Positions 19,148 through 50,225 of a stretch of 64,000 nucleotides of DNA are shown here, piece after piece (position 1 is the first letter of the stretch; every line of letters starts with the position of its first letter). Under the pieces are notes generated by a model. It saw only the letters and a program-made list of their open reading frames with translations, searched no databases and was not told the DNA's origin. This stretch comes from a virus. Its lineage: Duplodnaviria; Caudoviricetes. The translations under genes and the position numbers were made by a program. The stretch covers positions 6,459 to 70,458 of the IMG/VR virus record IMGVR_UViG_3300028832_000007, one strand, 5' to 3'.

Positions 19148-19192
19148 TTGTTTCTGATATTATATCTTGTTTCTATCAAAAATTATGCCATA

Positions 19193-32017: not shown

Positions 32018-32116
32018 GGTTCACTCCATTTTTACCACCGCCCCACCCGTTTACGGGCAGGGCACGCACCGAGCCTGAGGTCTGTTTATACTCGCTCGGT
32101 CGAGTGCTGGCTGGGC

Positions 32117-33581: not shown

Positions 33582-33890
33582 GGTGACGGAAGCGTGGTGA
33601 CGGGTGACGCAAACGTGTATGTTAATTGGACCAACCGTCACCTTTTGCGTCACCACTTAACATACTATATAATAAATACTTACAACCTTAGGTGACGGAG
33701 TGAACTTTGGTTTAAATAAACTATCAATTGAAAAAAGTTAAATTTATGTAGAAAATTTGCTAAATTTGCGTCACTGCGTCACCCGACCGGCAGAAATCCC
33801 GTATTTACGGGGCTGAGGGGCCGATTTTTGAGGTGACGCATCGAAAAAAGCTAGCGTCACCGGTGAAGCATTTGCGTCACCAGCGTCACC
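33582..33890. repeat. Iteron-like GGTGACG/CGTCACC array around an AT-rich core; putative replication origin
   Basis: GGTGACG at 33582, 33596, 33603, 33691, 33832; CGTCACC at 33636, 33648, 33777, 33855, 33875, 33884; AT-rich 33655-33768; directly upstream of the primase/helicase genes. Confidence 0.75.
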
Positions 33891-37200: not shown

Positions 37201-37628
37201 TTAAGAAATTCAAGGAATGGTGGTATTTCCACGTCAAGAACCCGGTCGTAAGGAAAGGAGAGGCCGGCGGATTCACATGGGTGTTCAGGAAGTTCGGGCT
37301 GGAGGTCAGGACGCGGAGCGGCAATTTCAGGGCGCAGTGGACTGCGGATGAGCATCCGTACGGGTATCTGGCATATTCGGACGGGAATGAGAACATTCAC
37401 GGCTTCGCCATGACGGTATACATGGTGTCGAAGCTGCTGACTACGGAACCCAGGTTCGCGGAAGATATCCAGCTGGCTATCAAGGCTTACGAGAAGAGGC
37501 TGGATGAGAGTCTCTCCGTGGTAGATGACCCCGTGGAGGAGGAAATAGCCCTGGCGGAGATGAAGGACGTGCAGGAACAGGTAGAAAAAGTTCGCAGAAG
37601 GAGGAAGAGGAATGGAGATAAAGGTTAA
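37197..37628 (+). CDS. Hypothetical protein
   Basis: 143-aa coupled ORF. Confidence 0.7.
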   Translation: MIKKFKEWWYFHVKNPVVRKGEAGGFTWVFRKFGLEVRTRSGNFRAQWTADEHPYGYLAYSDGNENIHGFAMTVYMVSKLLTTEPRFAEDIQLAIKAYEKRLDESLSVVDDPVEEEIALAEMKDVQEQVEKVRRRRKRNGDKG

Positions 37629-38049
37629 GAAGCTTATTCCGGAGGCCGTGGTGCCGACGAGGGCGCATGCGAGTGACGCCGGGTTTGACTTGGTGGCGGT
37701 CAGCAGGGTGATAGATGAGGACAGTGCGGTCGTTTACGGGACCGGCCTGGCGTTCGAGATCCCGGAGGGATATGTCGGGCTTGTCTTCCCGAGGAGCAGC
37801 GTCGCGAAGAAGGATATGGTGCTGTCGAACTGCGTGGGAGTGATTGACTCGGGATATCGGGGAGAGGTGATGGCGAAGTTCAAGCTGATAGACCCTCTTA
37901 TCGTGCATGAGAAGTATCATTGGTATGAGATCGGTGAGCGTATCTGCCAGATTGTGTTCATGAAGTTGCCGGAAGTGGAGCTTGTCGAAAGCGACGAGCT
38001 GAGCGAGAGCGACAGGGGAACTGGCGGATATGGCAGCACCGGGAAATGA
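37612..38049 (+). CDS. dut: dUTPase (trimeric)
   Basis: AGFDL, PRSS, GVIDSGYRGE, RICQ, RGTGGYGSTG. Confidence 0.97.
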   Translation: MEIKVKKLIPEAVVPTRAHASDAGFDLVAVSRVIDEDSAVVYGTGLAFEIPEGYVGLVFPRSSVAKKDMVLSNCVGVIDSGYRGEVMAKFKLIDPLIVHEKYHWYEIGERICQIVFMKLPEVELVESDELSESDRGTGGYGSTGK

Positions 38050-38052
38050 TTA

Positions 38053-38144
38053 TTTGGAAAATATCGGGATAATCCATATATTTGTACTTAGTTGAATTTC
38101 CATAAGTAGTAGGATGCGGTCCGCTGTGAAGCGTACCGCATTTT
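38053..38144 (+). ncRNA. Stand-alone small RNA unit: promoter, ~25-nt body, terminator
   Basis: TTTG-N20-TATATTTG (38053-84), body TACTTAGTTGAATTTCCATAAGTAGTAGG, hairpin ATGCGGT-C-CGCT-GTGA-AGCG-T-ACCGCAT-TTT. Confidence 0.65.
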
Positions 38145-38184
38145 GGCATGAAATTTGTATGGATTATATAAAATTTTTTAAGAT

Positions 38185-38496
38185 ATGAACGATTTTACGC
38201 TAAAATTCCATTCTGGGGACCATGTGTTCCTTTTTAACAGTATTTCTCTCTCTATCGAGGAGGATGACGTGTACGGAGCCCTGTTCTTGCCTGTACCTGT
38301 GCCGGGTGTGCTTCAGGAGAGCGGGAAGAGCATCAAGGAGAAGATCGAAGCCGGTCAGTTGGCGGTAAAGCAGCAGTATCAGCTGTGCCAGCACCAGGGC
38401 GTGGTGGATGCAGACATCCTTTTCGGTACCCGCGAGGAGTGTATCGCGTTTTACGCGGAGTTCTTCAACCGTGGCGGCGCGATCGTCTCAGAATAG
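38185..38496 (+). CDS. Hypothetical protein
   Basis: 103-aa ORF. Confidence 0.7.
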   Translation: MNDFTLKFHSGDHVFLFNSISLSIEEDDVYGALFLPVPVPGVLQESGKSIKEKIEAGQLAVKQQYQLCQHQGVVDADILFGTREECIAFYAEFFNRGGAIVSE

Positions 38497-38503
38497 GCGT
38501 TTT

Positions 38504-38590
38504 TCCCGGGTAGCCCAACCGGTGAGGCCCTGGCGAGCCCCGTTTATGGGGCGGACCGGTAAGATGCGGGTTCGAGTCCCGCCCCGGGAG
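38504..38590 (+). ncRNA. tRNA-like RNA 1 (no canonical anticodon loop)
   Basis: 7-bp acceptor TCCCGGG/CCCGGGA, TAGCC D arm with GG, T arm GCGGG-TTCGAGT-CCCGC; anticodon arm extended. Confidence 0.8.
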
Positions 38591-38643
38591 CTCTGAGTGA
38601 AAGATTTTTCATAAGCAGTGGTTGTTATACATGTGTTAAGTTG

Positions 38644-38673
38644 AAGCGGGTCGCTGCGAAGTGCCCCGCTTTG
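38644..38673 (+). terminator. GCGA-capped terminator
   Basis: AAGCGGG-T-CGCT-GCGA-AGTG-C-CCCGCTT-T. Confidence 0.75.
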
Positions 38674-38728
38674 TTCTTATGGCACGGAATTTGAAGGATT
38701 TGTTGTTAGTTTATAAATATTTTCGTTT

Positions 38729-39301
38729 ATGTCAGAGATTGGTACGTTTTATAAGAAAGGGTCTAAGTCCGATTACAGCGGAGTGGAGATCCTTGGCCCT
38801 TCCGGAGTTGTCCCGAGGGCGATCATAGAGAAGATTACCTTCCATGATGTGTTGAGCGTGCAGGGAAAGAAGGAGAAGGACCGCTGGACGTGCAAGTTCC
38901 AGGGTATCGAGAAACCTATGTTGTTGAATTCGACCTGCAGGAAGCGTCTCGCCAAAAGGTTCTGGAACGTTATCGTGGAGGATGGCCAGCCTTGTGCGGG
39001 CAGGATTGACCTGTTGTCGGGTAAGGGTCTGGCGGTGCGCCTCGATTCGGAGCCGTGCAGGGATCCGAGCGACGGGACCATGACTATAGGTCTGAGAATA
39101 TCCCTTCTGGATCCGTCTCCGGAAGAGGCTCGGCCGGTTAAAAAGAAAGTCGTGACCGAAGATAAGGTCCAGGTTACGGTCAACTGGGCGAAGGAGAACA
39201 ATATGACGTTCGAGGACGTGGAAAAGAAGTTTGATTTCGCGAGTGAGGAGGTCAAGAATGCAGTCCAGTCAGGTCTGAACAAGGAAGATTTACCTGCGTA
39301 G
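38729..39301 (+). CDS. Putative recombination / ssDNA-annealing partner protein
   Basis: KPMLLNSTCRKRL motif; lies upstream of the YqaJ-like exonuclease. Confidence 0.45.
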   Translation: MSEIGTFYKKGSKSDYSGVEILGPSGVVPRAIIEKITFHDVLSVQGKKEKDRWTCKFQGIEKPMLLNSTCRKRLAKRFWNVIVEDGQPCAGRIDLLSGKGLAVRLDSEPCRDPSDGTMTIGLRISLLDPSPEEARPVKKKVVTEDKVQVTVNWAKENNMTFEDVEKKFDFASEEVKNAVQSGLNKEDLPA

Positions 39302-39446
39302 CGTATGGACGGAAATAAGACGGTTTACTGGCAGGGTGTTAATAAGATAGAGAGCGGCACCTTGCTGCTGGAGAGCTCTAACGGGGACTGGTATGTCCGG
39401 TTAACGAGCGGCAAGGTTGTGCTGGTCAACGAAAAAAGTTTTTTAG

Positions 39447-42345: not shown

Positions 42346-42442
42346 ACCGGGGTACCTCAGAGGTTAGAGGAAGGTAAGCGTGGGCAGGTAAGAAGGGCTA
42401 CGCGCTTAGCCAAAGACGCGGGTTCGAACCCCGCTCCCGGTG
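42346..42442 (+). ncRNA. tRNA-like RNA 2 (long anticodon-position stem, purine-rich loop)
   Basis: Acceptor ACCGGGG/TCCCGGT, D stem CCTC/GAGG, T arm GCGGG-TTCGAAC-CCCGC. Confidence 0.8.
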
Positions 42443-42513: not shown

Positions 42514-42631
42514 GGATGGATGCCAGAATTGGGATTGGGAATCCCCCGATAGGGTAGCCCGGCGCATCAGCCCTTTGTAGTATCGGCTGGTTGGTGTGGA
42601 GGGCATGCAGGTTCGAGTCCTGTTCCATCCA
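42514..42631 (+). ncRNA. tRNA-like RNA 3 (class II-like, ~48-nt extra arm, aberrant anticodon loop)
   Basis: Acceptor GGATGGA/TCCATCC, D stem CCAG/TTGG, T arm GCAGG-TTCGAGT-CCTGT. Confidence 0.78.
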
Positions 42632-48712: not shown

Positions 48713-48764
48713 CTAAACCAATGTTGGGTTTAGGTTTTCATAGTACAGTGCTTTTTTTATGTCG

Positions 48765-48798
48765 AGTGGGCTCCGCAGTGAATGCGTGGCTCACTTTT
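48765..48798 (+). terminator. GTGAA-capped terminator
   Basis: AGTGGGC..CGCA-GTGAA-TGCG..GCTCACT-TTT. Confidence 0.7.
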
Positions 48799-49769: not shown

Positions 49770-50153
49770 ATGAAAAGAATCCTTGTCTACATATTCATCT
49801 TATCCTGTGCTTTATCGTCCTGCTCGAAGGAACATTCCGTCGATGCGGCATATCCGGCTTTCACTGGACGGTGGGTGTCGGAATATATGCTGAGCCAGGG
49901 CGAATGGATACCGGTCATAGAGCTTCGTGACCAAGTGATAATTTCCTTCAAGGATACTGGTGATTTCTACCTATATAGTTCTGTGTTCGGGACGGCGTCG
50001 GGGGTATATGAGAGGTCAGATGATCGTATTTCGCTTTATGCGAGCGGTAAGGAATACATGACAATCGAGATATTGTCGGACATGGAATCACAATATGTCG
50101 ACGCTACGTTGCGCTGTCGACAAAAAAACTTAAGCTATCGCTTCCGGAAGTGA
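49770..50153 (+). CDS. Lipoprotein, lipocalin-like
   Basis: MKRILVYIFILSCALSSC lipobox; FTGRW motif. Confidence 0.7.
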   Translation: MKRILVYIFILSCALSSCSKEHSVDAAYPAFTGRWVSEYMLSQGEWIPVIELRDQVIISFKDTGDFYLYSSVFGTASGVYERSDDRISLYASGKEYMTIEILSDMESQYVDATLRCRQKNLSYRFRK

Positions 50154-50194
50154 GTAACTTCTGTTTTTTCTTCATCATATAAGTTATTCCCGCG

Positions 50195-50225
50195 AGGCCC
50201 CCTGCAGTGATGTACGGGGCCTTTT
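50195..50225 (+). terminator. GTGA-capped terminator
   Basis: AGGCCCC-C-TGCA-GTGA-TGTA-C-GGGGCCT-TTT. Confidence 0.8.

Follow-up and report, generated by a model that had tools for sequence, protein, structure and literature searches.

A lineage-specific hairpin-plus-terminator module behind a tRNA-shaped phage RNA as a candidate small RNA released by tRNA-type processing

What becomes of an RNA segment that directly follows a tRNA-shaped RNA and ends in a transcription terminator, and could the tRNA-like fold be what sets it free? The question is raised by positions 38591-38679 of a phage genome of 70,458 bp with direct terminal repeats (IMG/VR), of which we analysed bases 6459-70458 (64,000 nt, hereafter the window, to whose numbering all coordinates refer unless a contig is named). 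The DNA runs that contain this stretch stem from bovine and sheep gut metagenomes, a look for RNA runs over 37600-39400 returned none, and the host probably belongs to the rumen Bacteroidales. The original prediction proposed that an anticodon-less cloverleaf serves as the processing signal for a small RNA carrying an 'anti-start' segment, linking two odd RNA classes into one system.

The region lies downstream of a dUTPase gene (37612-38049, plus strand) and of a gene for a 103-aa protein with no family assigned (38185-38496, plus strand), and is followed by a 190-aa gene (38729-39301, plus strand). By motif scan, sigma54-like -24/-12 motifs were placed before the 103-aa gene (TGGCATGAAATTTGTA, 38144-38159, plus strand) and before the 190-aa gene (TGGCACGGAATTTGAA, 38680-38695, plus strand). 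The underlying pattern, TGGCAYG-N4-TTG, precedes many genes of the window (sites at 33890, 34409, 38144, 38680, 41435, 45440, 48048, 48539 and 49358 on the plus strand; at 19190, 23107 and 53681 on the minus strand); it also stands immediately 5' of the homologues of the 103-aa gene in relatives (61-70% identity) and recurs in those genomes. Relatives of the downstream gene do not have the window's gene order 5' of it, and a blastn search against a phage collection matched the dUTPase only. Taken together, these elements would form a short transcription unit that starts at the sigma54-like promoter at 38144 and runs through the 103-aa gene, the tRNA-shaped RNA and the trailer to an intrinsic terminator; positions 38591-38679 would be the 3'-terminal module of this unit.

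The trailer letters quoted in the original prediction are present from 38591 on, and the trailer does adjoin the discriminator base: G38590 is followed by 52 nt of trailer and then by a GCGA-capped hairpin with a U-rich tail. The layout of this copy (copy B) is thus a tRNA-shaped RNA, the 52-nt trailer, a terminator (38643-38679) and the sigma54-like motif that begins at 38680. Within the trailer (plus strand throughout) we distinguish a hairpin, P1, with arms at 38593-38599 and 38612-38618 and a 12-nt loop (38600-38611) ending in UUUUUCA; the motif TTTYCATAAGYAGTRG at 38606-38621, which is the segment that had been called 'anti-start'; and a hypervariable spacer at 38628-38642, absent from a second copy described below (copy A), where the alignment shows a gap. 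The P1 arms of the window (CTGAGTG/TAAGCAG) contain two mismatches, and those of the close relatives L018 and L075 (CTGATTG/TAATCAG) pair perfectly. Taken by itself, the trailer is no more stable than its shuffles (-5.6 kcal/mol, z +0.74), and P1 is backed by few sequences, a pair of paralogues and some five close strains. We rejected an alternative inner stem (GUGAAA/UUUCAU), as copy A does not share it. A minus-strand mini-ORF starting from the ATG opposite CAT (by visual reading, 22 codons in the window, 37 in L018) was likewise dismissed, since the differences within it are non-synonymous and part of it runs antisense to the tRNA-shaped RNA.

The terminator (38643-38679, plus strand) consists of a hairpin at 38643-38672, with its GCGA loop at 38656-38659, and a U-rich tail. 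The hairpin reaches -18.4 kcal/mol, against -9.45 ± 2.36 kcal/mol for shuffled sequences (z -3.8; 0 of 200 shuffles equal). The stable GC-rich hairpin, the U-rich tail UUUGUUCUUAU and the position at the end of the unit are the hallmarks by which 38643-38679 qualifies as a predicted intrinsic (Rho-independent) terminator, in agreement with the GCGA-capped terminator that had been proposed. A simple terminator scan made no call at 38643-38679, presumably because the top stem has only 4 bp and the scan applies a loop rule of 3-8 nt. Rfam returned zero matches within 38591-38679, even at E<=10. Exact-pattern scans of IMG/VR (T arm plus linker; trailer core; terminator) gave no matches, and the promoter motif was the only part of the trailer DNA query matched in related phage genomes.

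A relative of the trailer was found within the same genome. Judged by alignment, the trailer and a promoter-driven mini-gene 500 nt upstream (copy A, 38053-38143), newly recognised here, are paralogues. The Bacteroidota-type promoter of copy A, TTTG-N20-TATATTTG (38053-38084, plus strand), is kept in L018 and L075, and the cassette behind it (38085-38143, plus strand) comprises a P1 hairpin (38085-38090/38103-38108, 12-nt loop), the motif (38097-38112) and a GTGA-capped terminator (38115-38140). An alignment of 38085-38190 with 38591-38735 matches the motif, the terminator top, the U-rich tail and the promoter motif of the two copies. Within the window, the 16-nt motif is found unchanged at two places only, 38097 and 38606; the terminator top CGCTGYGAAGYG occurs at 38122 (A) and 38652 (B), and copy B has about 22 nt more than copy A between motif and terminator. 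In both, P1 is a 7-bp hairpin (the arms located in A span 6 nt each), and its U-rich loop has 12 nt, of which the last are UUYCA. Copy C (48735-48794, plus strand), located in a 3' UTR, combines a version of the motif (TTTTCATAGTACAGTGC, 48735-48751), here outside any hairpin equivalent to P1, with a GTGAA-capped terminator (48764-48794); a similar layout lacking the full motif at 50150-50221 is perhaps a fourth copy (D). A loose form of the motif pattern was matched three times forward and zero times in reverse in this genome (control, one and one), all three matches being intergenic and 5' of terminators. Related phage genomes stayed at the control level, and the module is therefore specific to this lineage, in which it is present in three (perhaps four) paralogous copies.

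We favour, tentatively and with a confidence just short of even, the reading that 38591-38679 is a lineage-specific hairpin-plus-terminator small-RNA module, and that its copy B is probably freed by tRNA-type 3' processing. Copy A would then be a free-standing mini-gene under a host-type promoter. That P1 acts as an RNA structure is suggested by its covariation: the arms of A read TACTTA/TAAGTA, and two pairs are altered on both sides between A and B (A-U to G-C and C-G to A-U). It is very unlikely, in our judgement, that the motif and its dyad are DNA sites at which a phage regulator (activator or repressor) controls the downstream sigma54-like promoters, and not RNA elements. A distance of 41-67 nt does separate copies A and B from TGGCAYG-N4-TTG motifs downstream of them, and a dyad symmetry with a spacer fixed at 12 nt would suit such a site; however, the arm sequence of A (TACTTA) is not that of B (CTGAKT), although the arms stay complementary in each, which fits RNA pairing and not one protein reading both sites, and both copy C and the element at 50150-50221 precede Bacteroidota-type promoters instead of sigma54-like ones.

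Strain variation was assessed in the close relatives L018 (95% protein identity) and L075 (an independent sample), together with contigs from four gut runs. In X5 and X6, differences amounted to 2.2-2.9% in the 103-aa gene, 1-2% in the tRNA-shaped RNA (only at 38541/38542, in its inner hairpin) and 0-3% at 38669-38728. The trailer (38591-38645, 55 nt) carried 10 substitutions and 2 indels in X5, and 8 and 1 in X6. This divergence (16-22% among strains) is clustered in the P1 loop and at 38628-38642, where 6 of the 15 spacer positions were changed in X5 and likewise in X6. The core TTTCATAAKCAGTGGTTGTT was invariant in all strain variants, and the P1 loop measured 12 nt (13 in X5). Changes in the P1 stem were one-sided and kept or created pairing (C-G to U.G in L075; G38615T, which creates an A-U pair, in the other strains), and those in the terminator turned the loop from GCGA into GTGA, still a GNRA loop, or kept a wobble pair (A38644G). 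Cassette A, including its promoter, showed 97% column identity in three strains.

The same pattern of conservation can be read in another way, and this close rival we regard as a real possibility, though well below even: the segment may be a purely cis-acting end-of-unit cassette that only stops and insulates transcription before the next promoter, or lends stability to the upstream RNA at its 3' end, with the released piece being degraded and functionless in trans. It would explain why every copy sits at the 3' end of a unit with a promoter directly after it, why the terminator is the best-conserved part and the spacer hypervariable, why our target searches (see below) found none, and why there are relatives with just a short hairpin and a T-rich tail past the tRNA(-like) gene. 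It fits less well with copy A, whose conserved promoter drives only the module (the anatomy of a small-RNA gene), and with the presence of a 16-20-nt motif and a covarying fixed-loop hairpin, neither of which is needed for intrinsic termination. As a side observation, the variable 3' part of the trailer in L018 (UUCGUGUUAUA; L018:1673-1731) can pair, over 11 bp, with RNA transcribed from the sigma54-like promoter motif past the terminator, a pairing that is not kept in the window's own version.

If copy B is freed by tRNA-type processing, as we favour, the cut should be directed by the RNA in front of it. This first tRNA-shaped RNA of the window (38504-38590, plus strand; called by ARAGORN as 38504-38591) has an acceptor stem (38504-38510 pairing with 38583-38589), a T arm (38566-38582) and an aberrant anticodon region. 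An Rfam search of the window yielded no match to the canonical tRNA model (RF00005), so that by Rfam the RNA does not count as a canonical tRNA; the best match for this RNA was tRNA-Sec (18.7 bits, E=4.5). The discriminator G38590 is followed by CTC, and hence no CCA is encoded. Directly 5' of it, a small 5-bp hairpin with a U5 run spans the stop codon of the 103-aa gene (38484-38503, plus strand) and could cap the mRNA 3' end following an RNase P cut; G38497A, found in 5/5 other strains, converts a U.G into a U-A pair and makes the stem perfect. A natural 37-nt deletion in L018 and L075, which are independent assemblies, spans window positions 38523-38559 between ACCGGT direct repeats and removes the entire anticodon-side domain, leaving the acceptor/T-arm minihelix and an 18-nt linker; a contig of run X8 stops exactly at 38523.

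RNase P, RNase Z and the CCA-adding enzyme all need the acceptor/T-arm part in their substrates, and CCA-less precursors are RNase Z substrates, as established in B. subtilis. The 37-nt deletion spares just this minihelix, which fits a role that requires only the top half of the fold. CCA was not encoded in 15 of the 16 tRNA genes read in one Bacteroidales MAG, and one Bacteroidota MAG holds a full-length RNase Z-like gene that scores 288.7 bits, just below the cut-off of 292.95. The missing CCA and an RNase Z-like gene in the host phylum therefore make an endonucleolytic release of the trailer at 38590/38591 plausible. A cut after G38590, the predicted RNase Z site, would place the 5' end of copy B 2 nt before P1, and the position of the promoter of copy A predicts an RNA start at the P1 hairpin. 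By motif scan, no Bacteroidota-type promoter is present in 38085-38600, and copy B has none of its own. That A is promoter-driven, and B is promoterless and begins 2 nt past a predicted RNase Z site, lends circumstantial support to release by tRNA-type processing. Host RNase Z would most likely generate the 5' end of copy B, whose product would measure roughly 80-90 nt, from 2 nt before P1 to the terminator, with both ends structured. P1, which starts 2 nt past the discriminator, might hinder RNase Z, and the released 5'-monophosphate fragment may simply be degraded.

Of the interpretation first put forward, the release by tRNA-type processing holds up as plausible on the circumstantial grounds given (no CCA, RNase Z, the promoter of A and the minihelix form); the 'one system' and the anti-start function do not. 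A trailer follows one of the three tRNA-shaped RNAs of the window, the second (42346-42442) and the third (~42516-42631) having no such trailer, so the claim that the two RNA classes form one system does not generalise. Seen from the side of the modules, just one of the three or four is placed behind a tRNA-shaped RNA.

The anti-start function would have UUUUUCAU pair with phage or host mRNAs across the AUG and the A-rich codons at the start, so as to block initiation, with the tRNA-shaped RNA setting the 5' end; we consider such an antisense RNA unlikely. A precedent exists in the Bacteroides small RNA GibS, which can repress by pairing with start regions that have no Shine-Dalgarno sequence, via a conserved single-stranded 5' seed (PMC7366714), and UUYCA does lie inside the 12-nt P1 loop of A and B. 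In the trailer, however, RNAfold predicts the CAU segment of copy B to be paired within the hairpin, and a conserved single-stranded seed of the GibS kind was not found: most of the conserved motif falls inside the hairpin, and variation is greatest in the single-stranded linker (6 of 15 positions), the place where one would look for a seed. That the second and third tRNA-shaped RNAs come without such a trailer is a further point against this function.

The label itself had been drawn solely from TTTTTCAT, and searches for a target within the phage gave pairing no better than that of shuffled sequences. In 7.2 kb of intergenic plus strand there are 8 copies of TTYCAT, against 6 in the opposite orientation (about 3.9 expected by composition), which is not a clear enrichment. 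Across the entire 70-kb phage genome, the best complementarity score of the trailer was 33, against 35.2 ± 3.0 for shuffled versions (169 of 200 shuffles equal), and RNAduplex runs of the trailer over the whole genome returned just long weak duplexes. Duplex energies of A, B and C with 135 predicted phage start regions were ordinary (8 of 40 shuffles equal).

Outside the phage, a conserved 20-mer of the trailer had three exact matches in a 596-Gb genome collection, in which roughly two would be expected by chance (our own approximation for a random 20-mer that has one two-fold position, both strands being counted). Two of the three lie in Bacteroidota MAGs (L032:6440-6459 and L033:3116-3135), where the 20-mer is perfectly complementary to a gene start, from the 5' leader through the ATG to an AAA; one of these MAGs stems from a ruminant gut (water deer rectum). 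This would favour an anti-start role, but the two genes are unrelated: one encodes a signal-peptide protein of 176 aa, the other a peptide of 44 aa. In 301 Bacteroidales genomes, about 55 matches with up to two mismatches (<=2) were counted by ourselves, against about 23 for a backwards control. Most of these near matches keep the generic start context TTATGAAA, and of 22 inspected, six begin ORFs of at least 40 aa, none homologous to each other. No partner RNA stood above chance in the phage, and no conserved candidate was seen in the 301 Bacteroidales genomes; the actual host may still have a target. An antisense start-codon function of the trailer is, at the level of sequence comparison, not supported. 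Improbable, too, is the broader picture of a regulatory RNA family (A, B, C and perhaps D) whose 12-nt U-rich loops offer an anti-AUG to start regions of the host or the phage, with one copy matured by RNase Z behind a degenerate tRNA 'handle'; were it true, nature would have provided here a system in which a tRNA scaffold releases a phage small RNA.

The reading that we prefer, a module whose copy B is released by tRNA-type processing, can be set beside several known systems. In MALAT1-mascRNA and eukaryotic tRF-1, a tRNA-like fold recruits RNase P and RNase Z, which gives the flanking RNAs defined ends, and trailers are released together with the terminator run. Similarly, the tRNA-like fold described here might define the ends of its flanking RNAs; unlike these eukaryotic, nuclear cases, the phage module lies in an operon of a bacterial virus and has an mRNA on its 5' side. 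In the tRNA cluster of phage T4, the stable RNAs species 1 and 2 are co-transcribed and processed with tRNAs and are themselves partly tRNA-like. The module would likewise be a small phage RNA made together with a tRNA-type gene, but it is a hairpin plus terminator.

The closest known case is 3'ETS-leuZ of E. coli, which is released by RNase E. This spacer of the glyW-cysT-leuZ operon is freed by tRNA processing and persists as a small RNA (Lalaouna et al. 2015, as summarised in PMC9514646). As in the account of 3'ETS-leuZ given there (PMC9514646), the phage trailer comes after the final tRNA-type gene of its predicted transcript and ahead of that transcript's intrinsic terminator, with no promoter motif in between, the upstream element here being tRNA-shaped and not a tRNA by Rfam. 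It differs from 3'ETS-leuZ in being a phage module behind an anticodon-less tRNA-shaped RNA, in its predicted release by RNase Z and in having promoter-driven paralogues. Some small RNAs of Bacteroides thetaiotaomicron are processed (UTR-derived or intra-operonic) and have no start site of their own (PMC7366714). Like the small RNAs of that species, the module is small and AU-rich and ends in an intrinsic terminator (PMC7366714); unlike GibS, it is phage-encoded, shows no sequence relation to it and has its single-stranded part least conserved, whereas the GibS seed is conserved. Should the fragment accumulate, it would constitute a phage case of tRNA-type processing that yields a small RNA, with an adjacent promoter-driven paralogue as a built-in comparison, and would add to the very small known set of riboregulators in Bacteroidota and their phages.

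Should it not accumulate, the locus would still show a hairpin-plus-terminator cassette, peculiar to this lineage, whose spread is by duplication, and would document a conserved pairing of the 103-aa gene with a tRNA-like element in rumen phages. All relatives of this gene (61-70% identity, plus L018 at 95%) have a tRNA or tRNA-shaped gene ~5-150 nt past its stop codon, usually within 15 nt. In several of them the orthologous element passes the Rfam tRNA model at 32-47 bits (L007:3288-3366, L025:1144-1286, L027:1028-1102, L024:1750-1847 and L022), with normal acceptor, D and T arms and an anticodon region of 13-88 nt, against the 4-17 nt expected by the model; the acceptor stem TCCCGGG is common to L022, L025 and the window. 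Within a few nt of the tRNA(-like) gene, L022, L025 and L027 carry a 5-bp GNRA hairpin and a T-rich tail, and L007-L010, L019 and L029 have 150-190 nt of other structured RNA past it. At 61-70% protein identity, relatives still have the tRNA(-like) gene but lack the trailer module; the association of the 103-aa gene with a tRNA-like element is therefore old, and the module is young. The 103-aa protein, with 43 invariant columns across 10 sequences, had no Pfam or PHROG match; its AlphaFold model (pLDDT 88.5) is a small beta-barrel with a C-terminal helix, for which the comparison with known folds gave weak chromo/Tudor-barrel-like matches (E at least 0.07, TM below 0.5).

Two further observations concern structured RNAs in these phages. 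Long ORF-free structured stretches past the tRNA-like gene (L007:3370-3640, L008, L019 and L029), with no Rfam match at gathering score, have in common AACCGCAAATGCC and ACGCWGNGAWGCGT hairpins and a GGGCGGG...GGGA...CCGTCC hairpin. In the window itself, a Pistol ribozyme was detected on the minus strand at 32033-32105 (59.3 bits, gathering score 34.5).
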